Positions 40,101 through 64,000 of a stretch of DNA of 64,000 nucleotides are shown here, piece after piece; the stretch's first letter is position 1; each line of letters opens with the position of its first letter. The stretch is from the NCBI RefSeq assembly GCF_035084215.1, contig NC_090346.1, positions 3,534,001 to 3,598,000 on the forward strand. The letters are read 5' to 3'. Origin of the DNA: Heptranchias perlo (Eukaryota). The position numbers and the translations under genes were made by a program. The notes beneath the pieces are model-generated. The model was not told the origin of the DNA. It saw nothing but the letters and a program-made list of their open reading frames with translations, and made no database searches.

Positions 40101-43100
40101 CGTCACTGGCGAGGCCGGCATTTATTGCCCATCCCTAGTCGCCCTTGAGAAGGTGGTGGTGAGCCGCCTTCTTGAAGATTGCTTGAGGTAATAGGTAGAA
40201 TTGGGAGCCACCTACTTAAGTTGAGAACGGATTGAGTCCAGCTGGGTCTTTGTAAGTTTTACCCACCGACCTGTGGAAGAGGATTCCAGAGTTGGCAGTG
40301 AGCACTGACTCCATGCAGTACTTCAAGGTGTTTGGAAAAATGACTTGGTCATGGCAGAAGGTCGGAAATAAATTGCTTTTGAGGCCTGAATTAAAAGAGT
40401 AGTTTGCTGATCACCTTTGAGGTGACATCGTTCATCTGTGGAAGGAGGTAGCCTCCGAAAGCTTGTGAATTTAAAATAAAATTGCTGGACTATAACTTGG
40501 TGTTGTAAAATTGTTTACAATTGTCAACCCCAGTCCATCACCGGCATCTCCACACCTTTGAGGGGCTAGAGAGGAATTTTTGACAGGATTCCTGACTTAG
40601 CACTGTATCTTTCTGCCTCTCCCAGGAGGGAAAGAATGATAGGTACATGGGGATGAGTTCAGTTTAAAAAAAAAACAGGGTGAGCGATCATGGGCCGAAT
40701 GGCCTTATATTGTCCTAGGAACATGTATGTTATCTCCCATGTCATCACTCACAGATACTGCCTGGACATGGAGCTACAGGATGCAGTGCATCCTCTTGGG
40801 TGGGCAACAGTGACTTAGGGCTCAGCACAAGTCTGCCTGGACTGAAGAGTAGCAGAAGGACTCCTCATAGATCAACAGCAGACCCAGAGCACCTGGAGTG
40901 GCCCTTCAGGAATCAAATTTAACACCAACATAAGATAAACTGGAATAACCCATTGCAGGAACTGCATGTCCCTGAACACTGAAGCACATGCACAGAGACT
41001 GACTGGTAAGTACTCGCAGAAAAGATCCAGCTATAAAAACCAAGCTGTGGGAAAGGAGAAAATCTGAGATCCCAGGATTCTGAAAAAGGTATACCACTGG
41101 AGAAAAATGTATTGTGTGCATATCCAACAGGATTGAAACATTTTACAGATGTATATAAAGAAGCTTTTGTTAATTAAGTCTTCATGTTAGAAACCTTATT
41201 TTTAATATTACATGTTCTCAGATTACTGTCAAAGCAAGATGGCAACTGAAGGTATTTCAAAAAATGTTTTTGAGCAATTCACCGTTTCCCTGCTTCTCAT
41301 TGCAAGTTATTTGTTAATTCTTCACCGGTAGTTTTTCTACCTGCATGCATATACAAAGAGGAAACTACCCCTCAACTTCAACACTAATGTTGCCACCTTA
41401 AACTCTCCATCACCCATTTTATATATAACATTTATATCTATTAGTTAAATGATTTCTTAGAGCATCAAGTCTTTAAAAAAAAAGCCTTTAAGTTTAAACA
41501 TCTAAGCTGACACTGCAGTGCAGTACTGAGGGAGTGCTCCACTGTTGGAGGTGCTATCTTTCGGATGAGACATTAAAGCGAGGCCCTGTCTGCCCTCTCA
41601 GATGTATGTGAAAGATCCTCGGTGTTATTCAAAAAAGAGCTGAGGAATTCTCCCAATATCCTGGACAACATTTATCCCTTAACCAACATAATCGAAAAAA
41701 AGTTAAAATGTTCTGGTCATTTATATAATTTGCTATTTATGGAACTAGTGACTACACTGCAAAGTACTTCATTGGCTGTGAAGTGGTTTTGGATGCCCTG
41801 AGTATGTGAAAAGTGCTATATAACTGCAAGTATTTTTTCTCTATTATCATCTAGCAGCTACTTAAAAGATTGCCACGGTAGGATCCTGAAAGCAGATTAT
41901 TTGACCATATGATGCACACCAAAGGGAAAACATAAACAAGGTGACCATGTGGGGATGAGCAGAAACCATTGTTACAGATGTACTTGCTACACAGGAGACA
42001 GAGAAGTGTGGAACTAAGCTTTGGCAATCCTACAAAGGTGAACCACAGAACAGAGGCAGTGGAAGCGGACAGAGCCGTCAACCAGAGAGGTGAAAGGAGA
42101 ACAAGGAGAGATAACACACCATAATTGCAGTCACAAAGTATGTCACTAGTGATTTTACCATCGGTGCTGTAGGCAGTCAGACTGAAGGGAAACAAACAGA
42201 AAGTAGCTAAAGAGATACAGAGAGTGGGAATACATTTCATCCTAAGCAGCATCACTTACCTTGATAATAAAAGTAGGTGCTGGATTTTTTAGGCACACCA
42301 CAAAAACACCAATGAAATGTGTCATATATCACAGATATTTGTACTTGTTTGGAATGCCACAACGACCAAAAAAAATCACCTCCAATTAATGTTGCAGATG
42401 AGACCATTCATTACCAGCATCATTAATCGATTACTTATATATATATATATCCTTAGTATTACCTGAAACAGGAGTCTTTCTCTTTTGCATGATCAGAGGG
42501 AGACTTACTGTAGTTTCAAGCATTTTGTTTTATTTCAGATCTTTTACACTTACTTCTAAAATAACATCCTTTACCTCACTGGAGATGTTGTCCACTCATC
42601 CCAGTTATAAAAGATCCTGTATACCATTGTTCCATTCCCAACAGGTTATACTACATTTAAAGTGAAAATAATAAAAATTTGCTTGTACCTTTTCAATTAC
42701 ATATACTATCCATTGTAGTGTTTGCAATGACAACTGATGGTATACTTCATTACATTCAAAATGTTACTTGTTCCCCTAGAATACATATTTCTACTAGAAG
42801 TCAGGTGGGTATTACTGATTTGAAATTATACAATGTGTGAGGTGCAATCAAATCACGTTTGAAACAAAACTGAGTGGAAAATTGTGCTTATATATTAAAA
42901 ATAAAAAGTGTCGTCCTTCGTTTAAATGAAAAATTCTAATTGCTACCTTCAAGTAGCACTTTAATGGGGCAGCATACACCATTGGCTTTCACTACCCTGC
43001 AGGTTATTTTTAATTAAGCATGTTTTATTCTACAATATAATATACACTATAAATACTATGTACAATAACTAATGAGTTCCATCCTAAATAAACGATTGCA

Positions 43101-43425
43101 AAGTCTGCGTGGCCTAGATCAAATAACCTGGGAGTCGCCCAGTCTCAAAGCCAATCTACGGTAGTGCTCATTCCCCTAAGCCGGGTCCGGGCCCGTGTTA
43201 GGCCTCAGGCTCCAATCACTCCCAAACGCACATGGACCCAGTTGTAAACCGCCGCCGCCTGCTCTGCGTCAAAATAATAAAACCGAACCGATTTTTTCCC
43301 CCTTTACCGTCGTCGGAGATATCGTCCACGAAGTCTTCAGGGTCGCTGAAGCCTTCCTCCGGCTCTTCCAACTCTGCCACCTCATCCTCAGCCTCCCGGG
43401 CCTCGCCGTCGCTCGTTTCCATCAT
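19068..43425 (-). CDS. EIF3B: Eukaryotic translation initiation factor 3 subunit B; span of 18-exon CDS, 687 aa
   Basis: Spliced exons total 2064 nt with consistent phases; RRM ([20 protein letters not shown]) followed by WD40 beta-propeller motifs ([33 protein letters not shown]). Confidence 0.98.
20177..20285 (-). CDS. EIF3B: EIF3B exon 17
   Basis: [36 protein letters not shown]; AG/GT flanks. Confidence 0.96.
20503..20645. mobile_element. Short MITE with ~26-bp terminal inverted repeats
   Basis: tggggtaattttgactttgggtgata (20503-20528) versus tatcacccaaagtcaaaattatcccca (20619-20645), one indel. Confidence 0.75.
21328..21405 (-). CDS. EIF3B: EIF3B exon 16
   Basis: [26 protein letters not shown]; AG/GT flanks. 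Confidence 0.96.
21610..21970 (+). mobile_element. Decayed tRNA-derived SINE
   Basis: tggctcagatgg head; body shared with 47060 and 60080 copies. Confidence 0.55.
22960..23085 (-). CDS. EIF3B: EIF3B exon 15
   Basis: [42 protein letters not shown]. Confidence 0.97.
23683..23821 (-). CDS. EIF3B: EIF3B exon 14
   Basis: [47 protein letters not shown]. Confidence 0.97.
23951..24040 (+). mobile_element. DeuSINE-like 3' tail fragment
   Basis: tttcctacattacaacagt..ggctgtaaagcacttt..gcgctatataaatgcaag. Confidence 0.7.
24687..24765 (-). CDS. EIF3B: EIF3B exon 13
   Basis: [27 protein letters not shown]. Confidence 0.97.
24925..25066 (-). mobile_element. CR1 3' end; host element interrupted by the younger LINE, continues at 27179-27330
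   Basis: CR1 tail atcatagagtcatag; the sequence resumes at 27179 as tactttttaaatgcgatgagggtttctgcctccacc. Confidence 0.75.
25067..27178 (-). mobile_element. Young 5'-truncated LINE (CR1/L2 group) with an uninterrupted ~680-codon RT reading frame
   Basis: ORF 25133-27217: [47 protein letters not shown]; no endonuclease domain; AATAAA and A-rich tail at 25124-25067. Confidence 0.95.
27465..27587 (-). CDS. EIF3B: EIF3B exon 12
   Basis: [41 protein letters not shown]. Confidence 0.97.
28656..28728 (-). CDS. EIF3B: EIF3B exon 11
   Basis: [24 protein letters not shown]. Confidence 0.97.
29365..29660 (-). mobile_element. Decayed CR1 3' fragment
   Basis: tacagcacaggagaccattc..ctaatcccact..cttcaaatatttatccaattttccctt resembles the 904-1100 CR1 end. 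Confidence 0.65.
29797..30007 (-). CDS. EIF3B: EIF3B exon 10
   Basis: [70 protein letters not shown]. Confidence 0.97.
30420..30466 (-). CDS. EIF3B: EIF3B exon 9
   Basis: [16 protein letters not shown]. Confidence 0.95.
31481..31547 (-). CDS. EIF3B: EIF3B exon 8
   Basis: [22 protein letters not shown]. Confidence 0.96.
32371..32502 (-). CDS. EIF3B: EIF3B exon 7
   Basis: [44 protein letters not shown]. Confidence 0.97.
33622..33779 (-). CDS. EIF3B: EIF3B exon 6
   Basis: [53 protein letters not shown]. Confidence 0.98.
34880..35200 (-). mobile_element. Decayed tRNA-derived SINE, same family as 47060
   Basis: Reverse complement of ccaattgtagcac..agattagc..aatcagcaca..gggaccttctggtctg matches the 47060 body. 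Confidence 0.5.
35381..35509 (-). CDS. EIF3B: EIF3B exon 5
   Basis: [43 protein letters not shown]. Confidence 0.97.
36260..36317 (-). CDS. EIF3B: EIF3B exon 4
   Basis: [19 protein letters not shown]. Confidence 0.96.
36644..36763 (-). CDS. EIF3B: EIF3B exon 3
   Basis: [40 protein letters not shown] (RRM). Confidence 0.97.
37439..37631 (-). CDS. EIF3B: EIF3B exon 2
   Basis: [65 protein letters not shown]. Confidence 0.97.
38050..38462 (+). mobile_element. CR1 3' fragment
   Basis: ttcacccagagggtggtgggggtctggaactcattgcctga; tail ttctatgattctatga. Confidence 0.85.
38930..40020 (+). mobile_element. Old CR1 fragments (two adjacent pieces)
   Basis: ORF 39420-39770 ([29 protein letters not shown]) and upstream [13 protein letters not shown] remnant. 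Confidence 0.8.
40074..40176 (-). mobile_element. ~100-bp 3' tip of the young LINE family
   Basis: Nearly identical to 25067-25174. Confidence 0.85.
40425..40552 (+). mobile_element. Short Penelope-like insertion with mutated hammerhead motif
   Basis: 11-bp direct repeat cacctttgagg at 40412-40422 and 40553-40563; almost identical to the reverse complement of 49711-49842; core reads CTGTGGA instead of CTGAGGA. Confidence 0.85.
41505..41835 (+). mobile_element. DeuSINE-like element lacking its head
   Basis: Colinear with 18375-18720. Confidence 0.8.
43308..43425 (-). CDS. EIF3B: EIF3B exon 1, coding part
   Basis: [39 protein letters not shown]; donor G|GTAAAG; [10 protein letters not shown] is an eIF3b hallmark. 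Confidence 0.94.
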
Positions 43426-43445
43426 TCTCCTCTCGATCGGCGGCC

Positions 43446-43455
43446 GGAAAGAGAG
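43446..43455 (-). promoter_or_regulatory. TCT-initiator / 5'TOP-like pyrimidine tract, candidate EIF3B transcription start
   Basis: CTCTCTTTCC followed by GGCCG, about 20-30 nt upstream of the ATG; overlaps an ETS core CCGGAA on +. Confidence 0.55.
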
Positions 43456-43459
43456 CGCG

Positions 43460-43657
43460 GCGCGCACCCGCCCGCTCCGCGTCGCCGAGTATGCGTGCGC
43501 GCACCCGCCCGCTCCGCGTCTCCGAGGATGCGTGCGCGCACCCGCCCGCTCCGCGTCGCCGAGTATGCGTGCGCGCACCCGCCCGCTCCGCGTCGCCGAG
43601 TATGCGTGCGCGCACCCGCCCGCTCCGCGTCGCCGAGGATACGCGCGCGCACCCGCC
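43460..43657. repeat. GC-rich minisatellite, 37-bp unit, ~5.3 copies
   Basis: Unit gcgcgcacccgcccgctccgcgtcgccgagtatgcgt starts at 43460, 43497, 43534, 43571, 43608; partial copy at 43645. Confidence 0.95.
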
Positions 43658-43932
43658 TCGACCTCACGCCGGCTCGCCTCTTCCAAGTATTCGGAGGGGT
43701 GAATTCGTTAAGATGTAGAATAGATCAGCGAGAGATCACAATTGTTCGGTTGTGGTACGTTCACATATAGCTCTGTATCATCAACATGAACTACACCCGC
43801 TAATTCGTGGCTGAAAATTAATGTCGTTGTTAAGTGTTTGTTATGGAATTATCTGCCCCCTCCCCCTGTAGATGAATCTTTAGTCCAGTCCGAGGGCAGT
43901 CCCGGTTGCGGGTGTGGAAGCGGGCGGCGCAC

Positions 43933-44062
43933 GGACGGACGGAGTGAGTGAGTGAGGGACGGAGTGAGTGAGTGAGGGACGGAGTGAGTGAGTGAGTGAG
44001 GGACGGACGGAGTGAGGACGGAGGGAGGGAGGGAGTGAGGACGGAGGGAGGGAGGGAGGGAG
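43933..44062. repeat. Compound tetranucleotide microsatellite (GGAC/GAGT/GAGG)n
   Basis: Directly visible. Confidence 0.9.
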
Positions 44063-44234
44063 AAAGGCAATGTGACGGGGGTTCGCTGACTGACTCCATT
44101 AACTCGCTCTCCATTTCAGACAAATTAGCAATTAAAGTCCTTAAATAAAAAAAGTTCCACTTCCTCCCCACACCAGCCGTTTGGTGTTCACGACACTGGG
44201 GACAGAGGTGAAGGCCGGAGGTTTGAGGCTCCGA

Positions 44235-44316
44235 GCTGGGCGGCGGGTCACGGTGGGACCGCTGGGCGGCGGGTCGCGGCGGGTCACGGTGGGACCGCTG
44301 GGCGGCGGGTCACGGT
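44235..44316. repeat. G-rich tandem duplication, 36-bp unit x2 plus flanks
   Basis: cggcgggtcacggtgggaccgctgggcggcgggtc at 44241 and 44277. Confidence 0.9.
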
Positions 44317-44393
44317 CTGTACCGTTCAATCTCACCTCACCTCACCTCGCCATTGTTCTGTTCTGTTTTAAACCTGCCTTTAAGTTGGGGCCG

Positions 44394-44623
44394 AGGGTTG
44401 CCAACTCTGGTTGGACGTATTCCTGGAGGTTTAATCACATGACCTCCCATCGCCAAGTTAAAGAGATTTTTTTTATCCTTCGCCAGTATTTTTCTAACTA
44501 ATAAACGAAAATGAAAAATACACAATTTTAAAAAAAAATTCCCAGGTTGCTCGCAGTAGTGTCCCGGAGATGAATCTTTGCCCCAGAGTCTCCAGGAATT
44601 AATCAGGCAAGGTTGGTAACCCT
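44394..44623. mobile_element. Non-autonomous DNA transposon (hAT-like MITE)
   Basis: TIRs agggttgccaac (44394) and gttggtaaccct (ends 44623), 11/12 match; superfamily from recall. Confidence 0.65.
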
Positions 44624-44989
44624 AGAAACTCTCCTTAACATGCTTGTCAAAGGAGAGGTGTGAATTAGTTCTCCCATTGAGACACACTCGCCACACAGCA
44701 GTCATCAAAATAATACATTTTTGGTTAGATCTTATTACCTGTAACTAGTATTCACAGCTTTTTTTTTGTAATTTGCAAAATAGTAACTTTATAGAGCCTT
44801 GCTCATTTCCTAATGTTCCATTTAGATATGTAATAAAAACATTTTTGCACACTTAACTGAGACTTTAGGTCATGGTCTATATGAGATTTGTGGCAGCTGA
44901 CAGTCAGAACAAAGGTACTCTGAAACCATGGAAGTCTTACAGTTAGCCTTCCCCCATCGGTGCACTTGAGCTAAATTTGGTGCTGCATA

Positions 44990-45570
44990 ACTTTGACATT
45001 TTATTTGATCCTAAACTGAGCCTCAACCCACATCTGGCCATTGAAAAACCACATTTTTCCACCTCTAAAATATTGTTCACTTGCATCCATGCCTAACCCA
45101 TATCGCTGCTGAAACCTTATTCCATGCCTTCATCCCCTCCAGAATTGACGACTTGCTGACCTCGTTGCCTTTGCCCTTCCAAGTTTGAATTAATGGAGAA
45201 TTCTATGGCCAGTATGCTCTCCTGTGCATCTAACATCCCTGTTCTTGCCAAGCTTCAGTAACACTGACCCCCCCCCCAGCATATTCATCCTCTTCAAATA
45301 TTTGCATAGCCTCTATCCTCCCTATCTGAGCTCTATTCTCCATAGATATGCTGGGGCCTACATGCTCTGTTTCTCTGGCTCTGGATTACAGTTCATCATT
45401 CTTTGTCATTGTATTTCTGTCCTCTAAACTTCTCTGCCAAAACACTTCACCTTGCTATCTCCCTCGCTGCCTTCAAAAGCCTCCATAAAACCCATCTCCT
45501 TGATTGGAATTTTGGGCCCTTCATTCTCTCTTCCAAAGTCTCCTCCCTTTTCCTTCTTATTGCCCACCTG
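44990..45570 (+). mobile_element. Decayed L2-like LINE 3' region
   Basis: gctgctgaaaccttattccatgccttcatc..tccagaattgac resembles L2 'AETLIHAF..SRLD'; gccttcaaaagcctccataaaacccatctc resembles 'FKS.LKTHL'. Confidence 0.65.
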
Positions 45571-46286
45571 TTCATCTTGGAAATGCTTTGTTTACACTAG
45601 GAACATTCTTTCTGTGCTATACGTACTGTACACATTTTGAATGCCCTGAAATTTAAAAAAAACTATCTTTCCTGCCAAACTGTGATATGCAGTTAAAAAA
45701 TTCTGAGTGAATGCATGCATTTAGCACATTTAATTGGCAATGGTAGCCTTGGACTCACATTGAAACAAAATGCCTATGAATGTTTTAAATTTGGTTACAG
45801 ATATATTTGACTCTTAAATGTTCACTCCACCAATAGTCCTCACTGCACATTAGCCATTTTATTTGCAACTGAATAATGAATACAAGTTGTTGAACTAATA
45901 CGGGTAGGGAAAAGAAACTTGAACAAATATTAACCAAAAGATGAATTGAATGTCTGAAATAAGTATTTACTTGGATATTCAACAAAATAGGCATGAAAAA
46001 AATCATCATAGCCATTAAGAAGAAATAAATGTTTACTATCCTGAAGATGGAACTAAATCTCAATAAATTGTACTTGGTGAATTGTTTTTGAATATGAGCT
46101 TTTTGGAGCATGTAACTAATTTTGTGTGCTGTGATATTTGTGGCATATTTAAGGGTACACACCCTGTTAGTGATATTCTTGGGTAGGCATGTAGCAGATA
46201 CAGCTGGTATATTCGTATACCATCAAAAAGCATGAAGATTTACATTTTTTGTTTTTTTTCCAGAGAATTTGTCACATAGTTGGAGA

Positions 46287-46413
46287 ATGGAAAGTGAGTG
46301 TGTGGAGCTGCTGCCCCGTGTTTGTGCAGTGTTAGGAGACACCAGGCAGTCAGTTGTTGATGATACCTGTTTGGAGAAGCTGCTTGATTGTTTCCAGGCA
46401 ATAATAGAAAACG
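46287..46413 (+). CDS. BRAT1: BRAT1 first coding exon (acceptor at 46263/46264)
   Basis: MESECVELLPRVCAVLGDTRQSVVDDTCLEKLLDCFQAIIEN; donor G|GTAACT. Confidence 0.95.
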
Positions 46414-49400
46414 GTAACTATATAATCAGTTTGTTTAATATGACTAACTCAACCAGCATTGGGTATGAAATAAATTTGATTTGTATAATTTTAATGCATT
46501 TTTTGTACACATCAAGGTGAATTAGCACTGGAGAATGTTGCAGTTTCTACTTTTAAAACTATTGTCATCTATTCTGCTGGAGCAATATTTTTCAGTATTA
46601 ACTTTCAACTCCACCAATGTGAGTTGTTTTCAAGTTCCCACATCAACCATCCTTGTGGTCTTCCAAAGTGAGATTTCCAAATTGTGGACATGCACCCACT
46701 AAGAACTGGGTTGACAGCAAATTAATGCAATATCTGATCATTTTTAATGAAAGATGGTTTCTAAGATCAGCTTGTCCAGTTCACTTTTAAGTACTGTATA
46801 AGATTCTGAATTAGTAATCAGGATATTATTGCCATAGACAAGAATTTTGCTAACCAACATATTTGGACTCCCAGCAAGATGATCTGAGTTTGATGAACAG
46901 TTTCATCTGACATTCGCATTCGTCTGCCCCTAAGAGCATAGCTGCACTACTCTTTTTGGTTATCTAGGGAACATATGTGCCTCAAGCACCAATATGTCAT
47001 TATATCCATGGTGTCATAAATTGCGTCACATCACCACCAAACAGATGGCAGACTCCCCCGTTGGCACAAACTGATTTAAGGTAGAGTAGCTGAGCCATAA
47101 GACTATCGCTCGAGCTTGAACCTTGGCCTGTGCTGAGTCAGCTGATCACAGCTAGGCTAGTGCTACAATTGGCCTCAACATACATGGGTTGGGAAGAAGA
47201 AAACTGGACAGAGCTCTAACTCCTGATCATTATCCAATGATCCCTGCTGGAAAGTCCAGTTGTGGATGTTGAGCGTGCACAGAATTGGTCTTGGCTAAGA
47301 TGCCCCAGTGACCAAGTAGCCTGCTGACACTGTCTTGTAAACATGAAGAAGGGCTACTAGGCACTGGGCCAGAGGGCAACCAGTGCCCTTGAAACTGAAC
47401 CTCTGCAAAGTCAATGTCTTCAGAAGGGGAGGGAAAAAATTGGCATATGCAGTAAATAAAAAAAGCAAAGGGGGAGACAGTACATTTTAAACTGTAATGA
47501 TAAAATTAGACATTCAATCTGTATAAAATTTTACTCACTTTTGATGTTTTTCTTTTCTGGGGTCCCTTCAGAACCTGAACTGTATATTCTCCAGAAGAAT
47601 CCATGCCTGACAAATATAATTGTAAATGTGACCAAGCAGAGGGACCTTAATCCTAGCATCCTGTCCTTCATTATGAGACTGACAGGGTTATTTGCAGCAT
47701 CAGAAGAGTATTTCCATAAATTGGAGGTAAGAAGTAATCAGAAAAGAGTTAATTTTCAAGCTTTCATTTTTCTGTTTGATAAATAATTGCTCGCTTGTGA
47801 TAATCAAATATGATTGCTAATTTAAAGCTGTAATGATTCACCGTTCCCATAATTCAAACATTACGGCCAGAAAAAAATGCCTTTCTATACAAATAAAAAG
47901 AAAGAAACGACAAGAAAATGCTGGAAATCCAAAATAAAAGCAGATCCGTCAGCAAATGGAAAGAGAAAAAAGACACATTAACATTTTGGCTGTAGACCTA
48001 TTTTGGCAACGGGTTTGCACCTTAAACGTTGACCTTTTTCCTCTTTTCGCATACTGACAGACCCGCTATGTATTTGCAGCATTTTCTGTTTTTATTCTTT
48101 TTATTTTTTGTACTTTGGACATTTTGAAGTGTAATGGATGCTTTCATAACTTTTTTATTGACATGCATTATGTGTAGAGCTGTCTATGTTGAGAGTATGG
48201 TGGTACAGCAGACTGGTATTCCAGCATGCAATGCAGAAGTTTGCATCAATGTCTTGTGATTTTTTTTTAATATGACTAAAGCCACAAGTGGCAGTAGTTT
48301 TCACTAAAGTAGCACTCACTTTGTGCTGTGTTCACTAGATTTTCTGCTCCTTTGTATTAACATAAAATAAAGGAATCCACATTTGAATGGGTTACTCACC
48401 ATCTTGGGTGCCTAGTACTATCCTAGTGCCATTTTTTGTGGTGGTGAGGGAAGGAAGGAAGGGATGTTATATTCAAAAAAATCTACAGGATTTGGAAGTA
48501 ATTTAGTCAGACCCATAAGGTGAACCGGTGTTCAATTATAATTCTGTTCTCTCGGTGTGTTTGTGTGGTGAAACCAATTTTTTTTAATTTGAAGAAGGAA
48601 AATGGTGGGTGGGGAGGGCATCTATAGAATAATTGATTTTTGATTCTAATTTACTTGTCAAAAGCGATACTATAATTTCAGTGCTGCTGTTATTCCAGGG
48701 TGATGGGATTATGAGCAGCCTGTTTGGAAATCCTGCAAACCTTGGGACAGAAGCATGGGAGGAAGCAACTGTACGGTGTGGATGGCTGTTGGGGATCCAA
48801 AATATGCTGCAGCATGAGGCTGTGATCCAATTTCTCTGTAAATATGGTAATCTCTTAATCTCTCATATCTGTTTTGTAGACAAATATGCCTTCTGCCATG
48901 TGAGAATGCTAAAATATGCACACATTTTCTGTTGTAAGTATCTATTGAGATCACTGAAAAAATTCAGGTGATTGCATAGACAATCATGCAATTCTAAGAC
49001 TAACAGAAAAGATGTTTGGAGTAGTAATTCTTCGTTCTCTCCTACCATTTTGTATATGTGCAAGTTGAGGAAGCTGTCACCGCATATTTCTGCCCACCTG
49101 CAGCCTTCTGTGTTTGTCACTGAGATTGCAAGCTATTACCTATCTTGTCTTGTATGAATTCATTTGCATTAGCTGTCTCTGAATTTTCACAATGGTTAAT
49201 TACTTCTGCTTTTGCCAGTAGCTTTTAAACTTTGGATCAATCCTGTGTCATGTTTAAATCACAGAACTGCTTTAAAAAGTAGTTCTATAAAGCGTTAGTT
49301 GTTGGTTCTGTTGAATTTGCCCCATTTAAATTGTGGAACAGATTCCATGTCATTAATGGCAGTAGATTAACAAAGTTTGTGCATGTGCAGTAATGTGAAA

Positions 49401-52400
49401 GTGCCACATTACAACTTTTATTTCTAGCTGTAGGATTTTCCTTAAAGGCTGGAGAAAGTTCATAGAGGATGGCAGCAGGAAAACTGTATTCCTCCCCTGT
49501 ATGAGTGTACAGCACATTTGGCTAACTGCAACCAGGAAATGTGGTGGCTGCATTGGCACCTCTGCCTTGAGTTACTGGGCAAAGCCACCTTTTCAGGTCA
49601 ATCTTGGTGCCTGCCGGGCTGTAAGGTTGTCTCATTTACCTTCTAGTGCTGATTCCGAATTTGGGGATGCCACCAGTGGCATTACTATTAGAGGTGTCGA
49701 TGGTAGCCATGATGTGGAGATGCCGGTGATGGACTGGGGTTGACAATTGTAAACAATTTTACAACACCAAGTTATAGTCCAGCAATTTTATTTTAAATTC
49801 ACAAGCTTTCGGAGGCTACCTCCTTCCTCAGGTGAACGATGTGGAAATGAAATCCTCAAAATGAAATCGCATTTATAATTCACAGAACAATGCTTGGTGA
49901 TTACAGACAGTTTTTTCAACTGCCCGTTGCCAAGGCAATCAGTGTGCAGACAGACAGGTGTTACCTGCCAGGTCTCAGAATATACAAATCACCAAAAAAA
50001 AACAACAAACAAAAAAAAAACAGAGATAGAGAGGTTGTTTGTTGTTTTTTTTGGTGATTTGTATATTCTGAGACCTTGCAGGTAACACCTGTCTGTCTGC
50101 ACACTGATTGCCTTGGCAACGGGCAGTTGAAAAAACTGTCTGTAATCACCAAACATTGTTCTGTGAATTATAAATGCGATTTCATTTTGAGGATTTCATT
50201 TCCACAACGTTCACCTGAGGAAGGAGGTAGCCTCCGAAAGCTTGTGAATTTAAAATAAAATTGCTGGACTATAACTTGGTGTTGTAAAATTGTTTACAAT
50301 TACTATTAGACAAATACATCACTAAATTTGCTGACCCATTCCATTTACACTAAAAGCTTTCAATGCCAGTAAAATGTTACTCATAAATGCTCTTTGTATA
50401 AAAATGATCAGTACCTTTAAGATTAACATTCTGCTTTTATTTTTACTTTGCCAGAAAAATTGCTATGCTATCCTGTTTTTAATTTTGACAAAGGTTACAT
50501 TTTCTATCTCTTTTTGCCAACAGACTGTATTGACAGGATTATACAGCTTCAGAAGGACCCAAGTATATTTGTGGCCTCAACAGCTAGTCAACTTTTAGCA
50601 AACATGTTTTCTTTCTCCTTACGATGCTCTGAACTCGCTACTTTGGGAAATGGCAGTAAAATCCGATTAGCTGACACAATTGGTACAGTTACTGCTTTGC
50701 ATTCTGCTGATTGGTCAGATTGTGTCTGTGCAATTACTGGACATATTGAAGACCTCCTGAGGTGTGATATCACTTCCAACATCCAACAGGCTCTGAAACT
50801 AATATCCAAGATTTCTGGAACGTGCCATCCAGTTGCCATAGTATCACTGTGGCCTAAGATAGAAGGAAGTGTAGAGTTACTTCTGAAGGGTGATCTAACT
50901 GGAATTGGTCAGCCCTTGGCAGAGCTTTTCCTGAATGTATCCAGGTAAGAGTGGAAGAACCATTTAATGTTATTTGCCAACAAAAATCAGTCTGGTGGCA
51001 TTGGGATTAAGAGGTTTGCTTCACACCAGTATGGCAGTTTCAAGTACTTGCATTTTCTGGCAATCTGTAAGAACTAAAGGGTGATGAATTTATTACATTT
51101 CCAGTGTGGTTATTTGTTAGATGGGAAGACTGTGGAAGTGAATGTCTTATTCTAGGAGAAAAACTGCCTACAACTCTCTTGCCCTCCAAGTGCATTTCCT
51201 CAACAAAAATGAAGCAGCATTGTCACTTATATCATGCTGTGATACTACTTGGAGGTACTTATATCCACATTGAGTGTGCCTGTGTGAGATTACAATTCTC
51301 GAGCATGAGAAGTAAAGAACTAGCCGAGTAGTTGAGAGAGTTGACCAAAAGCACTCAACACAGAGTTAAGTATCTTTGACTGCTGTTCTAAATACAATAT
51401 TTTCTAAATCAACCCAAAAGAATGCGCTGTGGGAACATTTGAGAGTGCAGGTAATAGTCATGTCTCCTGTTGTTGATAATGTCTTAGAGCTGGAATGGGC
51501 ACTTTGATTGATCAACAGCATTGTAACAATTCACGGCAAGAGGAGGATGCATCCAGAAGATGGGAGTAGCCTAAGTAAAAGAATAAACAAAGAGGAGAAA
51601 ATTGGTTAATACCTGTACAAATTAAAATCCTGTAACATATAATCTACTGTTAATTCACCCTCACCTTTCCAGAATGCAAAGTAAGTTCAGTGCAATGCCA
51701 CAATACTGACTTCCCAAATGTTTAGTTTTGCTAACCAGTTTCAAAGTATGTGGTAAAACATTGAAGCTGCTGCTTAATTGCAATGGCATTTATATCCTTA
51801 TACCCTGAGAGGATGTTTTATCATTGTCAATTGTGTGATCCATGGGTGGTAGAAAACTGGCGAGTCAGACTTGCTACCCATAACAATTGGCATTGGCAAT
51901 GTCCCTGGAGATGTCTGCAGCCTGGCTGGTCCCACATTCCTGATCAAGGACAATGGCATTGATACTGAGGGGGAAGTAGAAGAAGAGACAAATATCTATG
52001 AAACTGTGTTTGTTAGAAGGACTTTTTGGAGATATGTGTGATTGTGATTTTTTTTTAAAAAACTGTAAGGAGTGAAAAAGGATTGTTTTCATTTTATCCT
52101 GCAGGACAGTTCCATGTGAGGTACTGGAGTCTAAGATCTGGGAGTTACTGGGTCGCTTATTGAGGTCACTGAATCAAACTGAAGCACTGACACTAGCTTC
52201 AGGGATCCTAAAGCTCCAGAACTGGTATGGAAGTCTGAATATTTACTTCTATTAAAAATAAATATTAGTGTAGAAAAAATAATCATGTAAGATCAGGAGC
52301 CAAAGTCCAGTAGCTGTATGACAGCTTTGTAAAATAGGTGATGTACTTGATTAGTGAAAGTACCATATGAATATATACATAGGCTGCCCCAACATATAGG

Positions 52401-55400
52401 CCACATCCCAATCTTGAGCCCTGTGCCCAGGGTAAAAATTACTTGCTTATAAGGTGCATTGCCAACTTAAACTGATGGTTTTGCTTGTTTTTTTTATAAA
52501 GTGCAGCTGGTGTGTGAGTTAATATGGTTCTTTTATTCAGAATATTAGACTATGAATAATAGATTCTTCTTGAAACCATTAATACTGAGGAACACTGTCC
52601 CCAGCACAGTAGAAGGGAGGTAAAATGTCATTAAGCATGTCATGAAAAAATATAGTATCAGCTGGACTTTGCCACAACTCTAGTGCTTCTGGACAGAGGA
52701 TTTGATTTCTGAGCAAATTATTGAAATTGATAATTTATTTCAGGGGCTGAGCTTCCATTTAACAAAGTTCTCTTAAAATAAGTGAAGTTCAATTTTTAAA
52801 AAAACAATGGGCTGGGGGGAAAAACATTGTATTTATTTGTGCTTTTACAATAGGTTGAGCGAGATGCTATATGAAAATAGTAGACTCAGGCATTAGGGTT
52901 ACATATGCTCTTAATGATATTCACTCATGTCGATGGTCTTTTAAAAGTTGCAGCACAGTTTTGTTAAAACTAGCTGATCTAGGGTGATATGGAGCATGAT
53001 TCTGATGTCACTGTAGTCCCATTTTGAGTTGGAGTAGAAGTGGGTGGGGAGGGCACGGAACAGAGTACTGAAAATCAGATGTTAAACCACTGTACTCGAG
53101 AAGTAGGGGCATACATACCTATTTAGTAGCATCAGAGACAAGGCAAAACGTGATTGTGGCTGTTCTGAGAGAAGTTTCTTTTTTCTTGATCTGATTTCCA
53201 AGCAGAAGGCTATATCTGGGAGGAAAGTTTTTGGTTTGTCCAGGAAGAAAATGGAGATGGTTCTTTAAAAAGCAATAGAATTTTTTCTAATGATTGACAG
53301 CAAGATCGGCGATTTGTAGAGTGTGCCATGACTTCCTGTACATAAGCCCCCATCCTTTCTGTCCAGTATTGTACAAGACTCAGTGGAAGATGTCAGCTAT
53401 AAGTTGCATCTGGGAGTTTTGGTGCATCAGAGTTACGTGCACAGTGACACTATTGAATTCTGTGAGTTGTAATCTATCAGTGTGACATACACAGAGTGAT
53501 ACTGGTGCATTTTCAGAATCTGCGACTCGATTGAGCATCTTTATTCAGGCAAGGTCCAGGTACACAATGGAAGTTGAGAAATTGAGAGGACAAAGCAGCC
53601 TGCTTGATTGGCACCCTCTCCACCACCCTAAATGTTCACTCCCTTCACCACCGGCGCACTGTGGCTGCAGTGTGTACCATCCACAGGATGCACTGCAGCA
53701 ACTCGCCAAGGCTTCTTCAACAGCACCTCCCAAACCCGCGACCTCTACCACCTAGAAGGACAAGGGCAGCAGGCACATGGGAACGACACCACTTGCATGT
53801 TCCCCTCCAAGTCACACACCATCCCGACTTGGAAATATATCGCCGTTCCTTCATTGACGCTTGGTCAAAATCCTGGAACTCCCTTCCTAACAGCACTGTG
53901 GGAGAACCTTCACCACACGGACTGCAGCGGTTCAAGAAGGCGGCTCACCACCACCTTCTCAAGGGGAGTTAGGGATGGGCAATAAATGCCGGCCTCGCCA
54001 GCGACGCCCACATCCTATGAACGAATAAAAAAAAATGCAGTTGAGCTTAAGTCTCAGGTTCCTGAGAAGACAGGCAGACCAGTTTGGGGAAAACTTCTTG
54101 GAGGCGTGTTTAACAAACAATCAGTGACCGAATGGGTGAGTTTAATGTTTTCCCCCCAAGAATTATTTAATTTAAATTTATTTATGTTATGTATATTCAG
54201 GTGGGTCAGAAATCAAGATGGCGATTGAAGCCATTGTACGTAAATAAATTGAGCATTGCAGTTGGTTCATTGTGTGGTCTCTACTGCTACCAGGTTGGGA
54301 CCTTTAGAAAAAAATTGAGTGATTGAATTGTGCAAGTACCTCATTCATGATTGATACGTTTCCTGAATGGTAGCTTTTCATACATGTCTGCATTTGAATG
54401 ACTCTGTTCGTGGATGTGATCAGGAAAGTGTGACGTGATTTTGTTTTTGTGGTATGGACATATTTAATATTCTGCACTATACATTGAATTTGTGATGTAT
54501 GTTATATGCAAATCTCTTAATTATATAGATAGATATGAAAGTTCATGTAGACCATATTGCATCAATATAGTTTTTCAGAAATCACACATTGAGCCTGTAT
54601 TTGAAGAGAATCTAAATTTATTTTGAACAAGAGATTTATGGAAATAATCTTGAGTTTATAAGATTAATGAGTAGTGCAGTATTCGAACACTGTCCTTTAG
54701 GAACCTGCATCTTATTTCAGCTTGGGAGAATAAATTGAATGTTTTTTCTTCACGGAGGCTATTCAAGCATATCGGCAATCTAAATTACCTCTGGCAAACA
54801 ATTTAAGTTAATTTATTGTGTCCCTTATTTTTATATTAACGTTATTGTTTAGAATGCTTAATAAATAACATCAGCTTTATTATTAAGTGAAGGCTGCTTT
54901 CACTCCTTGCAGGGGATTTATTCCACTGAGGATGCCATTATTCTTAATTTAGAACCAAACCAGATTTTTTATTTTATCAATCTCACTCAACAAATTCAAT
55001 ATACTACAGTATTGTCTCTCCCATAAACATGTGTAATCAAAATTTACTATCACTTCACAAGAAATCTGCATGTACATAATATTCTGGAAGATAAAAGATT
55101 GTGGAAATGTGACATTAGTGCTGGGGTAACTCTTGAGGGAACATGGCTACAATGCATTTCTAATGTGGACAATAATGGTATTTGAGGGTTAAATGCTATT
55201 GAAAGAATCCTTCGTGAATAAAGGTTACATTTTACATATGGTGATATCACATTGGCCCGTTAATTGCTCTGAGCGGTGAACCAGCAGTGGTTGCCACTCG
55301 TTAGATTTAAATTCACCCACTAAGTTACCGCGTTCTTTTTGGCGGCAGCTTCCTTGAACTGCGAGTTTAAATAAGATCAGCGTTCTTTCCCGGGCTGTGA

Positions 55401-58400
55401 GAGTGGTGAAAGGATCGCTAAGGCCCCTCAACCAATCAGCTTGAAGCAAACCATGCTGTGAGAACCAGGAAGTGCAGTTCATAGACAAACAGTGCAGACT
55501 AAAAACCCAGATGTGCCAGATAATGTATTATAAAATGACATAGAGAAAGCGAAATAAAGAGAGGATAAGATTAAAGGACTGAGATAAAAGAAAAAAAAAT
55601 TTTTTTAAACTTTTTTTAAATTTAATTTTTTTTTAAAATGTCCAAAAATTATTAAAATCAGGAGTAATGAGACTCCACATTTTTAAAAGTTAATTTTTTA
55701 GTGCCAGAGAGGTTGTTTTGCAGTCATTAAGACTTACCACGCTGTTAAAACCTATATTCGGCTTAAAAATCTGTTTTGTGGCAATATTAGTTAGTTTCCA
55801 GTTGAGCAGGAGAGCAAGTTGGTGCTGGTCCATTGATTCTATTGATTGCAGCCAGCGATATCCCTTTAAAGCGAAGCTGACAGATCGCCAGCGAACCAGG
55901 ATGAGCAAGTTCCGGATTTCCACGTTTGACTGCGCCTGTGAGGTCACCGGAACTTACTGTTTGATTTTGCCACTAATAACTGTTAGACTCACCGTTATTT
56001 TGAAAGCAATTTCTGGCCCAATGTCTTAAGTGGTCTGTACTGTGTGTTTTGTAATAATGAAAAATTAAAGATTGACTTGAACACCAATGGAGACATTCTT
56101 GTCCAAATTACAACATAATATTTTTTCCCCACCAACAACCAGGGTATCTTTTTGTGCCTAAGCTGCCTCAAAGACTGTGCCTAGTTGTAAAAACATCCCA
56201 CCAGGAAAATACCCCTTTAATTGGTTCTAACCCACCTTTAGCAGAATTTGTAGGTCAATAGCCAAGATTAAATTGAGAGGCCATGTGAATCACAGCAATT
56301 GCCTCTCAAAGAGTAGCAATGTTGTGGCTGTTGTTATAAAAAAGATGTATTCCACTTAGAAGAATGAAGGAGGAAGCCTCCGAAAGCTTGTGATTTTAAA
56401 TAAAGCTGTTGGACTATAACCTGGTGTTGTAAGACTCCTTACATTTGTCCACCCCAGTCCATCACCGGCATCTCCACATCAAGAATGAAGTTTGTTCAGT
56501 AGAAACCAGCAGCTTTAAGATTCCATGGAACTTGAATATATCTGCAGCATTGTTAGATAATTTGGAGTCTTTTTTGTGTGCTTGGATGGCAATATTTATT
56601 TGTTGGTTTCAGTAATTCCTTTGAATGTATGCTTTTTATGTAGTCCACAACCACTGAGGATGCAGGCTGTAACAACAGTAATCCAACCATTGAATTACAT
56701 CACTACTGTGACTTCTGTGCAACCCCAGGAGGATACAGGTACATCGTGTATATGATTATCCAACAATCCTAGCAACCTAGCTGGTACTATCTGTGCTAAA
56801 TTGTACCTTCAATCTGTAGATCTTAAAATTAATGCATAAAGAGGAAATGTATGATGGTGCTTGAAGCATTTTTGAAGACTGGTAACATTTTTAAGACATG
56901 CTCATTTGTGCAGGAGTTGTGAAGTGCCAGAATGCAAGCAAAGGAATGCTATGAGGGAAGAATGATCTGTTATGCTTATAGTTATATAAGTGTTATAAGA
57001 AATAGGAGCAGGAGTAGACCATATGGCCCCTCGAGCCTGCACCGCCATTGAATCAGATCATGGCTGATCTTCAACCTCAACTCCACTTTCCTGCCCGATC
57101 CCCTAGAGTCCAAAAATCTGTCTATCTCAGCCTTGAATATACTTAACGACTCAGCATCCACAGCCCTCAGGGGTAGAGAATTCAAAAAATTCACAACCCT
57201 CTGAGTGAAGGAATTCCTCCTCATCTCTGACCCCTTATCCTGCGACTATGCCCTTATAATTGTACCTTTCTGGGGCAAAAGTAGTATTTATTAAGTATAA
57301 TCTTAGTAGCAGCATTTGTAAGATATAGAGACGGTTGAAACAATTCCGAGAAAGACAGAAAAATGGTTCCAGGTTTTAGATCACTGAAACATTGGGATTA
57401 TAAGGAAGCTAAATCTATACTTGGGAGATAGTGAAATGAGCAAAATTTTTTAAGTAAGATTAATAAAGTGGAGTTTTGTGATCGGGATGGAGCACTATGG
57501 AAGATGAATGAGTTGAAGAAGTCTGAGGCTATTTGTAATCCTCTAAGTGCGACAGTTATTCCATTAAATTGTGCCTTTCCAAATGTAACATTGAGTTATC
57601 TCCTACTGATTGTAATGTAAAACTACTATTGCATACTACAAAACAATATTGATTCTCTCAGGATAACAATGTTACAGTATTAACTGTGTTTTAACACAAA
57701 CAAAGCTGTGCTCTTTAATACTGAAAGTACCGTGTGTTTTTCTACAGTCTTGCTGGATGCATCTTCAAATTACAGAGTTGATATTGAGCATCTTCTTTCC
57801 AGAAAATCATCTTGTATCAACTTGCTCTGTCAGACACTTTCACATGTCTGGGAATTCTTACAACTGGTAAGTAGGTAAGGATAAAGAGTTGTACTGTGTT
57901 AGAAATTATACTGCTCTCCTCTCAGCTCTGGAATCTGAATCGTGAACAGGAAAATAAATAAAAGATGTTATGGATGTCAAAGGAAATCTTCCTCTAGGAC
58001 AAGATAGCTTTGGTTTTATATCTAGGGGCAGTTAATAAACAATGGGTATTGGTTATCTTAACCTGCAGAAAGTGTCCCTTTTCCTCCAGAGGAGCTTTCA
58101 TGTGATCCAAGAAAGGAAAGATATTGAAACCAAATATAAATTAATTTTATCATGCATCTTGTAAAAGAAAGCTAAAATTGTTGACTTTCTTTGTCTTCTT
58201 CAGCCCTCGCAGACAACAGAGTTGCCGTACCAAGCCTTGACTAACTCGGTGCTTACAGCCCTACAGCTGTGTATTGGCACTGCTATTCCCACCACTTCAG
58301 CTGGTGTCAATATTAGCAGACATCTGGTTGGATGCATCAAAGTTCAGAGAGCAGGAATCGATGTTCTTGGTGCAATCACTCAGTGGGCAGGTATGAAACA

Positions 58401-61400
58401 AAACAAAGCAATAAGAAAGCATCAAAGTATTCTCTGTCTCTGATGTAACTGTATCTGACTGGTTCAAAACTTGTAGCAGCTCATACTTCCTCCAGATTAC
58501 ACCTTCCAGAACTTAACATATGGAGCTTGTGCCCTATCGACCAAGCAAAGCAGATGCACTGGCCTCTGGAGGCCTAAGGACTACCACATGTCTGTACGCT
58601 GAAGTCTTAATAGCAAAATGGTAGCTTAGCATGCAGGAAAATTACTATAAGTATTAAAGTGGATTTTTGTTTAGGTCAGTAATATTTATCCTTGAATAGT
58701 AAACATCTTCAGTGATTCAAATTTTTATACTGGTGCAGTTTAACAGTAGTTCTAGGTTAATATTCTATGGACTTCCCTGTTATTTATTAACTAAAGTGCC
58801 AGATGAAGTAAAATTTTACTTCGAAGGCTTAATGGTTTAAAATCTAGAATTTTCTCAGAAGTTATTGTTTAGTACGGGGTGAGTAGTACTGATATAAAAA
58901 TAGGGTATGTTTTATTTTTTCCCCTCCTGTCCTCAGATGCTAACTATTGTTTGCATATACTTCCATAGGTAATAGCAGCCCTCTGTTCAGGGTTTTTGAA
59001 CTTTGCCACTGTTGAATTATAAAAAATGTTTACACCTATAATATTGAGACTGGTTTAATTTTTGTTGAAATTAATTTCCTTTATAATTTTAGGGGGGATC
59101 AAGGATGTAGACAGTGCATTGAACCTTCTCCTTGATTATATCAGAAACCCAGATACAGACTGTACTGTGAGTACTATCTTTCTGCATTAAAATATATCTG
59201 TTCATAATATTTCAGTGCAGTACTCTGTTGTTAATGCACCTCATCCATGGTGGAAAAGCACTACATTAGTTGCATGCAGCTGTATGGCTGCAGAGGCAAC
59301 TGAACAGGATTCAGTTCAAAACTTCACATTCAATGTACTGCTCAAAGTATAATTTGTACCACTTACACTTGAATCAAGGATCATATGTAAAGGCTCTGAC
59401 AATTAATCAAATTTTTAACATTTAGGTTTTGAAGAAATCCCTCCAGGCTTTACTTCACTGGATGTTACATTGTACTGATGCTGCAGACTCTCATGTACTT
59501 GAACCCAAGTTACAAGAGTTTTTACATGGAGGTAGGAAACAGGAGTCTGCTGTCTGCTGAATCTATATTCCATGCAATATATATTTAATTTTTTTTTGTC
59601 GATCCTATCTAAGCTTTATTTCTAAATTTAATCAAAAGCAAACTCCAACATATATTTCCACACACTAAGCTTATGAGTCATATTTGTCGACCATGATTGT
59701 AATACTTATTATATGGGGGAACAGTATCCAGAGGAATGCCGGTTTTACACCCTGCCTGATAGTAATCGGGCGGGGTGTAAAACCAGCGATGCACCTGATC
59801 TCAACAGTTTCCTGATGGGCCGGTTAGGTTAAAATTGTTCCTATATGTGCAGTTTCATTTAAACACTAAACATAGTGCACACAAGATTAACTCCTACTTA
59901 ATACTCCTATTTACCTACACTTGGCCAGCTTTCAATGTTTTACAGTAAATGAATTTTAAAAAATCAGTAAATCTACAAAAGAAGGATGATGTAATTTCTT
60001 TCAATTGCATTCAGCTAAATTCTAAGTGATTTTTTTTGTACCCGGTTAAATGCCTTGTGTTTGTAAAATGGGACTAATGGGTTCCCCCTATGGCTTAGTG
60101 AGTAAATGCACTGTGTGTTACATCAAAACTACAGCACAGAAACAGGACATTCGGCCCAACTGGTCTATGGTGGCGTTTATGCTCCACACATGCCTCCTCC
60201 CCCCCCCCACTTCATCTAACTATATCAACATACCCTTCTATTCCTTTCTCCCTCATGTGCTTATCTAGCTTCCCCTTAAATGCATCTATGTTATTTGCCT
60301 CAACTCCTTGTGGTAGCGTGTTCCACATTCTCACCACTCTCTGGGTAAAGAGGTTTCTCCTGAATTCTCTATTGGATTTATTAGCAACTATTTTATATTT
60401 ATGACCTATAGTTTTGGACTCCCCCACAAATGCCAACATTTTTTCCACGTCTACTGTAGTTCTCTGGTTTAGTACTAAGCCATACAGAACAAGAATGTCC
60501 AAGATTTGATTCTTAGATTGTGTTGAATTAACTGATCTGAGCCTGGGCAGCATTTGAAATGCTAAAACTGACCCGTGTGTCCCTGGACTAGGCAAATGTA
60601 AGGAATCTTACAACACCAGGTTATAGTCCAACAATTTTATTTTAAAATCACAAGCTTTCGGAGATTATCCCCTTCGTCAGGTGAATCCTTACATTTGTCC
60701 ACCCCAGTCCATCACCGGCATCTCCACATCATCCCTGGACTAGGGTTCTTGTTCCTTATAGCTATACTGTGATCCGTGGTAGAAAGTGCATGTGTGGCCA
60801 TTGGGCCATTGGGTGAGGAGAGGACAAGGCTTGACTGTAATGGTCAAATAGCCTGGTGACACACATGAGGAATAGCTACTTGAATAAGGCATGGAAAGGC
60901 TCCTTGCACCTGGGGAATGGAATCCCAGCAACATTCAGCTTCAGAAGAGGTGAGGAGAAAATTGGATTAAAAAAATTAAGGATAGAAAAGAGACTGGTGT
61001 CTAAGCATGATTTTTAATACTACACACTAAGACGAAGCTTACATGAGTACATGGCTATGCTTTTATTATACCTCTCTGGAGAACTAGATTTATTTCCTTT
61101 GCAGTTTTCATAGTACACACAAGGGGCTATGTTCAAGTGCAGTGTTTTCAAATATAAGTGCAATTTACAAAACATATAGTAAGTCAGATTCCTTTTGCTC
61201 TCTTTCCTAATTAGCGGCAGTGTACTATATTTGCACAGTGATGTAGCTGCATCACCAATGTAATTTTGTTTTCTTTTGGGGGTGGGGGTGCAGCACCTGC
61301 CTGTCTTCAGTGTACCCTGGAACTCAGTAGACCCTCCAATTAGTCAGGCTTCGTGGGCAGGCCATTGCACCAGGTTTCCCAGCAATCGGAGTTCCAGGAA

Positions 61401-63069: not shown

Positions 63070-64000
63070 GAATCATAAAATCATAGAATGAGACAGCACA
63101 GAAGGAGACCATTCGGCCCATCGTGCCAATGCCGGCTCTTTGAAAGAGCTATCCAATTAGTCCCACTCCCCTGCTCTTTCCCCATAGTCCAGCAAATTTT
63201 TCCACTTCAAGAAAGTTATTATTGAATCTGCTTCCACCACCCATTCAGGCAGGGCATTCCAGATCATAACAACTCGCTGTGTAAATTTTTTTTTCCCTCA
63301 TCTCGCCTCTGGTTCTTTTGCCAATTACCTTAAATCTGTGACCTCTGATTACCGAGCCTTCTGCTACTGGAAAGAGTTTCTCCTTATTTACTGTATCAAA
63401 ACCCTTCAGGATTTTGAACAGCTCTATCAAATCTCCCCTTAACCTGCTCTGCTCTAACGAGAACAACCCCAGATTCTCTAGTCTCTCCATATAACTGGTC
63501 TTTCATCCTTAGTATCATTCTCGTAAATCTCCTCTGCACCCTCTCTAAGGCTTTGACATCCTTCCTAAAGTGTGGTGCCCAGAATTGGACACAATACTCC
63601 AGCTGGGGCCTAACCAGTGTTTTATAAACATTTAACATAACTTCCTTGCTTTTGTACTTTATAACTCTATTTATAAAGCCAAGGATCCCGTCTGCATTTT
63701 TAACAGTCTTCTCAACTTGTCCTGCCACCTTCAAAGACTTGTGTACATACAACCACAGGTCTCTCTGTTCCTGCACCCCCTTTAAAATTGTACCATTTAA
63801 TTTATATTGCCACTCCTCATTCTTCCCACCAAAATAAATTCACAGCATTAAATTTCATCTGCCATGTGTCTGCCGATTTCACCAGTCTATCTGTGTCCTC
63901 CTGAAGTCTGTTACTATCCTCCTCAGTGTTTACTACATTTCCGAGTTTCGTGTCATTTGCAAACTTTGAAATTATGTCCTATATATCCAAGTCCAGGTCA
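63070..64000 (-). mobile_element. CR1 LINE 3' portion, same family as 904-2668, runs off the window
   Basis: ORFs 63396-63776 and 63245-63490 ([31 protein letters not shown]); tail atcataaaatcatagaat. Confidence 0.92.

Follow-up and report, generated by a model that had tools for sequence, protein, structure and literature searches.

The question raised by a 64,000-nucleotide stretch of Heptranchias perlo DNA (NCBI RefSeq assembly GCF_035084215.1, contig NC_090346.1, positions 3,534,001 to 3,598,000 of the forward strand; hereafter the window) is whether four short insertions with hammerhead ribozyme motifs are mobile units in their own right or fragments of something larger. A preliminary description suggested that such copies may move as non-autonomous, retrozyme-like units. 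The present comparison suggests otherwise: the four inserts probably derive from the terminal repeat of an autonomous Penelope-like element (PLE) of Neptune type, as copies that are 5'-truncated and in part inverted, and are likely dead-end cDNAs.

The insertions themselves, their common tail and their target-site duplications (TSDs) of 10–13 bp are real and far beyond chance, as first described. The shared 27-nt tail has exactly four exact matches in the window (40528; 49713, minus strand; 56452; 60702) where none is expected, and a CCGAAAGCTTGTGA box has five against 0.35 expected. All four copies are 85–98% identical to the end of one autonomous element, at a locus designated L031, with its pseudo-long terminal repeats (pLTRs), open reading frame (ORF) and 3' untranslated region (UTR). 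Their features are as follows.

40425..40554, plus strand: copy 1, a single 130-bp arm made of the pLTR end and tail, with its start 40 nt 5' of the predicted ribozyme cut, 98.5% identical to the L031 pLTR
40412-40422 and 40553-40563: TSD of copy 1, 11 bp
40431..40469, plus strand: minimal hammerhead of copy 1, with a damaged core (CUGUGGA, A6 to U)
49693-50298: copy 2 as a whole, 606 bp, a head-to-head pair with arms of 327 and 267 bp
49693..50035, minus strand: tail-bearing arm of copy 2, with partial 3' UTR, TATA box (49872-49877), hammerhead, tail and ORF start, 97% identical to L031
49798..49836, minus strand: hammerhead of that arm, whole minimal form, found by motif and box search
50035..50298, plus strand: tail-less arm of copy 2, with partial 3' UTR, TATA box (50169-50174), initiator-like A at 50198 and hammerhead, 96% identical to L031
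50210..50248, plus strand: hammerhead of that arm, whole minimal form, predicted cut after 50243, stems I and II present in the minimum free energy fold
49681-49692 and 50299-50310: TSD of copy 2, 12 bp
56366..56480, plus strand: copy 3, a single arm truncated within the hammerhead core, CUGA absent, 88% identical to L031
56360-56369 and 56481-56490: TSD of copy 3, 10 bp
60593..60686, minus strand: tail-less arm of copy 4, which begins at its subfamily's initiator-like A, with 0 mismatches of 76 to an ORF-linked copy, L046
60647-60685, minus strand: hammerhead of copy 4, whole, stem II GGGGA-UAA-UCUCC
60687..60731, plus strand: tail-bearing arm of copy 4, very short, 95% identical to the L031 tail
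60580-60592 and 60732-60744: TSD of copy 4, 13 bp

Copy 2 had been recognized as an insertion but taken for one short insert at 49711-50301. It is a head-to-head pair, detected as an inverted repeat, whose minus arm reaches 18 nt into the element ORF (49693-49710; first six codons, the translation beginning MATIDT) and whose tail-less arm stops 35 nt before the end of the tail. Copy 3 is joined to its target through GAAG microhomology, and copy 4, likewise a head-to-head inversion, has its hammerhead and its tail on opposite strands. The UCAC-CUGANGA motif, at first ascribed to all four copies, is whole only in copy 4 and the two arms of copy 2; it is altered in copy 1 and cut away in copy 3. 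A match to MIR9563 at 49962-50084 was dismissed as just the palindrome centre of copy 2, its score lying under gathering.

From what do these fragments derive? A search with copy 1 returned two matches 3,067 bp apart at the locus of the whole element L031, and with it the full-length copy carrying a GIY-YIG and reverse transcriptase (RT) ORF that the preliminary description had proposed to look for. The layout is TSD, inverted tail-less arm, hammerhead and tail, an ORF of 902 aa beginning where the tail ends, 3' UTR, a second hammerhead and tail, TSD. The predicted protein matches RVT_1 at E=4e-10, has a YIDD motif and a CX4CxxC linker at residue 753, and ends in a GIY-YIG domain (E=4e-4; at 21.1 bits just below the curated cut-off of 22.6) for which relatives carry PF01541. 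The nearest named proteins are from sharks and are 80–98% identical. A CX2-5CxxC linker between RT and endonuclease (EN) marks the Neptune/Nematis type (PMC8557442). The single ORF with RT and GIY-YIG, the pLTRs, the inverted 5' copy, the tail at one end and the TSD are those of an EN-bearing (EN+) PLE. This points to an EN+ PLE with a minimal hammerhead, as the preliminary description had stated for the class, and likely to the Neptune type, judging from the linker. The copy-4 variant is linked, via a different 3' UTR, to an ORF 96–97% identical to that of L031 (L046).

The family is young in appearance and large. The first 80 aa of the ORF find 1,844 candidates genome-wide, and all 150 matches scored are 98–100% identical, many lying within open frames of 918 aa. 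Between subfamilies, the 3' UTRs of L031, L046, L204, L106 and L071 differ in 26–51% of columns, against 8–24% for the hammerhead region; the 3' UTR spacer turns over fast between fixed signals. Three full-length units stand in tandem, at a spacing of ~3,083 bp, at C1:188733841-188740246 and C3:73054112-73060520. Two ORF-bearing copies, L085 and L086, have the core G8 changed to A, probably by CpG decay. A named shark epsin-2 isoform includes a 98% identical piece of the element ORF, either a gene-model artefact or an exonised copy.

Do the short copies form a separate lineage? The exact core pattern has 84,784 matches in the genome (reversed control, 0) and one tail variant has 11,648. A random sample of 157 stretches of 10 kb, taken at round coordinates on large contigs, contains 50 clusters covering 34.7 kb (2.2%), equivalent to ~103,000 genome-wide (95% range 77,000–136,000); 18 include ORF sequence and 32 are short and lack it, and one cluster, of 29 bp, is probably spurious. 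This preponderance of short copies, together with a conserved fold and one recurring junction, speaks for their being non-autonomous retrozyme-like elements, transcribed, self-cleaving as dimers and mobilised in trans; retrozymes do derive from PLE ends, and one chondrichthyan genome has them (10.64898/2026.07.22.740005). Such movement is nevertheless very unlikely here. No short head-to-tail tandem occurs among the four window insertions or the 50 random ones, rare arrays elsewhere in the genome being possible; most short arms have no TATA box; and both ends vary as in new insertions. Two of the four window copies are without an intact core, and none of 114 arms scored for their start (from the random sample and a second one chosen by position, omitting arms close to the edge of a locus) begins at the predicted cut. 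Moreover, in what is a small sample, 45 of 56 short arms differ from an ORF-linked copy at no more than 3 of 76 positions, and all three stem-II variants of the window occur on ORF-linked copies.

The three stem-II sequences, and the variation of N7 between G and C, are present as originally written out. Their presence on ORF-linked copies implies that the fold is conserved by selection in the autonomous masters. The extent of that conservation was assessed in 78 arms from 48 loci, picked by a flanking anchor rather than by the motif (L257 was left out as an overlap of L256). Core positions other than N7 are kept in 76–78 of the 78, as are the four inner pairs each of stem I and stem II; the changes common to several loci are to G-U, with one C-G to U-A in stem I. 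Shared variants thus preserve these inner pairs and alter only N7 in the core, and the claim of a conserved ribozyme fold holds. Among 35 of the 37 distinct types (two were left out for offset), 88.9% of cells are paired, against 33–53% when the alignment is slid.

The evidence first offered for this, a G-C to A-U covariation, is weak. The pair affected is the loop-closing pair of stem II, which is A-U in 23 arms, G-C in 31, C-G in three, G-U in two and unpaired in 19. Two-sided change is seen in only two of ten pairs, a number reached in 256 of 500 shuffles, and the rows are related; the loop-closing pair was accordingly rejected as proof of covariation. Selection on the hammerhead fold is supported, and rests on conservation more than on covariation. 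It acts on the hammerhead in the autonomous masters, while in the short copies the ribozyme is likely just carried along, mostly uncut.

Within the window, the full set of features given for minimal PLE hammerheads in PMC4209133, namely the CUGANGA and GAAA boxes, an extra base after A9, G10.1-C11.1, a palindromic 15.2-16.2 and stems I and II, is found in copies 2 and 4 only. The Rfam hammerhead models gave no match in the window at E<=1, nor in 50150-50320 at E<=10, as would be expected for a form that lacks helix III. A PDB sequence search returned no match. In the energy model the monomer folds stems I and II, and the double hammerhead is predicted at -21.9 kcal/mol, against -27.2 for two monomers. 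That a dimer should be less stable is in line with literature accounts in which cleavage is weak or protein-dependent. Those studies also found no trace of cleavage in RNA reads (PMC4209133, PMC11167929).

How, then, do the short copies arise? Their 3' limits are informative. In 38 of 39 head-to-head pairs one arm has the tail and the other ends ~35 nt earlier, the exception being a tail with a deletion. Tails stop at the AUG, and many continue into the first bases of the ORF (ATCATG or a longer match in 18 of 65), which points to internal priming. In vitro, an anole element is primed internally at two sites bounding the tail, with both strands extended and cleavage unneeded (PMC11167929). The inverted arm has also been explained by self-priming, or fold-back, on one template, in an antisense model (PMC3846280). 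The arms of one insertion are indeed usually near-identical (127 differences in 4,079 columns, 39 pairs) and the joints are often palindromic. On a single template, however, each arm should not hold sequence absent from the other, as is the case in copy 4 and L124, nor should the tail be on exactly one arm. L268 (4715-5079) joins arms of two subfamilies within a single 12-bp TSD, which requires two RNAs, and L242 probably joins two subfamilies as well. Self-priming is very unlikely.

The 5' limits are also non-random. With the predicted cut set at 0, the starts of the 114 arms fall as follows: 40 at or beyond -100, two at -99 to -61, four at -60 to -49, 49 at -48 to -23, three at -22 to -1, none at 0 and 16 at +1 to +21 (about one in seven). 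All six ORF-linked 3' UTR groups have a TATA-like box at a matching position, despite UTRs differing in 26–51% of columns, and the L031 group has an initiator-like TCATTT 29 nt past it, at -46. The two motifs are identified by the usual consensus and spacing of such promoter elements. The upstream edge of the starts is sharp, 27–33 nt after the TATA box in subfamilies of differing sequence. TATA and initiator motifs have both been noted in rotifer pLTRs (PMC3846280).

Genome counts fall across the start site from 8,586 to 3,731; site by site, 44 of 100 matches extend across it, while for the following 19 nt the figure is 33 of 46 (p=0.002), and four head-to-head pairs abut exactly at the start base. 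Reverse transcriptases can copy the RNA cap as an extra G. In the copy-4 subfamily, with C excluded, the base before the start is G at 58, A at 25 and T at 17 of 100 listed sites out of 128 (hand count), where 0.28 would be expected for G. A G excess among matches from an earlier query had been rejected as evidence, since that query selected for G, and the copy-4 subfamily sites are the retest.

A mechanism can be proposed from these positions. The TATA/initiator promoter of the pLTR would drive transcription, the RNA starting 1–12 nt upstream of the hammerhead and having hammerhead and tail at both ends. The GIY-YIG endonuclease would make a staggered cut ~10–15 bp apart, and both DNA ends would prime synthesis on RNA, the first where the tail ends, next to the AUG, and the second ~35 nt further 5'. 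When priming falls on the 5' repeat, the enzyme would reach the capped end of the RNA and run off after ~130 nt, in many cases with one extra base added opposite the cap. Microhomology would then link the cDNAs to the target or, head to head, to one another. Run-off at the capped end is proposed because of the pile-up of starts, the TATA spacing, the count drop, the abutting pairs and the G excess. The short products, which have no TATA box, are likely silent.

Ordinary 5' truncation might produce a similar pattern if the enzyme stalled or dropped off past the structured hammerhead and microhomology hot spots made the pile-up. Heavy truncation is a known trait of PLE insertions (PMC8557442), many of the junctions here use short palindromes, and the starts are spread from -48 to -23. 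Against this, stalling would leave unexplained an edge that keeps its distance from the TATA box across subfamilies, blunt joints at one base and the extra G, and we consider it unlikely.

Several observations weigh against truncated terminal-repeat copies made by run-off. Among ORF-bearing copies, the 5' repeat extends past the proposed start in 20 of 29, so that a further step is needed (template jump, tandem read-through or circular RNA). The starts cover 25 nt rather than one base. The extra G could come partly from microhomology with the partner arm, which supplies a G in most listed cases, and the count drop reflects not only truncation but also CpG decay and undetected variants of the subfamilies. 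Some two dozen matches share one inversion junction, though the query selected for it. Eight of the 56 short arms, mostly from a one-reference group, match another short arm with at least 3 fewer mismatches than they do any of the ORF-linked copies sampled. Finally, start site and cap are deduced from DNA rather than from RNA ends.

Does the hammerhead leave any mark on the insertions? Cleaved RNA as the main template was rejected, no arm starting at the cut. There is, however, a second peak just past it: among 68 tail-anchored arms, ten start at 0 to +21, compared with two and one in the flanking 22-nt windows (about p=0.002 by hand, the windows being chosen post hoc). This fits the copying of self-cleaved RNA with trimming, and may trace self-cleavage; it is best treated as a lead. 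Of the ten, only L185 and L267 are joined straight to the target, and the AT-rich near-palindrome at the cut could draw head-to-head joints instead.

More broadly, and tentatively, the ~100,000 insertions may be a map of how the Penelope cycle proceeds in vivo. Priming at the tail end and 35 nt inside it, sometimes on two RNAs, would give run-off cDNAs resembling strong-stop products; a retrovirus-like jump to the 3' repeat would rebuild the pLTR and its promoter; and the 16 of 114 arms starting 2–19 nt past the cut would be a genomic trace of hammerhead cleavage in the germ line. This larger scheme is possible rather than probable. Pseudo-LTR regeneration is a point on which PMC2377424 sees no obvious mechanism, and PMC3846280 leaves self-priming versus other models open.

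The element class, ribozyme type and layout have been published, and the family itself is ordinary. Like the minimal hammerheads of metazoan PLE pLTRs, those described here are of type I, without helix III, and share the palindromic 15.2-16.2, the extra base after A9 and G10.1-C11.1; several families per genome, mostly single motifs and an association with truncated elements are likewise common to both (PMC4209133). The 84,784 exact cores compare with ~4,000 in coelacanth and ~9,000 in Xenopus by the descriptor of that paper, and stem II is 4–5 bp here but 7–8 bp in its Schistosoma case. The one supplementary file of PMC4209133 searched contains no shark term, and another may list more hosts.

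Known EN+ PLEs of the Neptune/Nematis type have the same RT-then-GIY-YIG ORF, CX2-5CxxC linker, partial tandems, head-to-head inverted 5' copy, one-sided 35-nt tail, TSD and pLTR TATA/initiator motifs (PMC8557442; PMC3846280). The family differs from them in its very high copy number, its many open copies and its at least six 3' UTR groups, and no microsatellite targeting is seen in the flanks examined. The Anolis Poseidon element PAc is again alike in its two tail-bounding priming sites, internal priming, extension of both strands and cleavage-free insertion. Its hammerhead overlaps the ORF start, with priming ~110 nt into the ORF (PMC11167929), whereas here the hammerhead precedes the AUG by ~90 nt and the AUG is where tails end. 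Non-LTR retrozymes share the type I hammerhead, non-coding nature, PLE relationship and long TSDs, but are short head-to-tail tandems with mostly canonical hammerheads and circular RNA (PMC7229834; 10.64898/2026.07.22.740005), in contrast to the single or head-to-head copies with minimal cores described here. A literature search, mostly outside subscription journals, found no publication with a run-off or strand-transfer model for PLEs or on a shark PLE hammerhead. Being young and very abundant, and having sharply placed ends, the family is a large natural record in which questions of PLE copying become testable on one genome.

Other features of the window are minor. On the minus strand, 24429-24499 resembles the C/D box snoRNA SNORD57 (46.6 bits; gathering 47) and is likely in an intron of its host gene. 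A GC-rich 37-nt tandem repeat and a GAGT/GGAC-type repeat, at 43423-43694 and 43913-44082, lie in an apparent CpG island. Further dispersed repeats, some LINE-like, lie at 25070-25516, 53589-54035, 10261-11987, 1064-1806 and 63090-63942.

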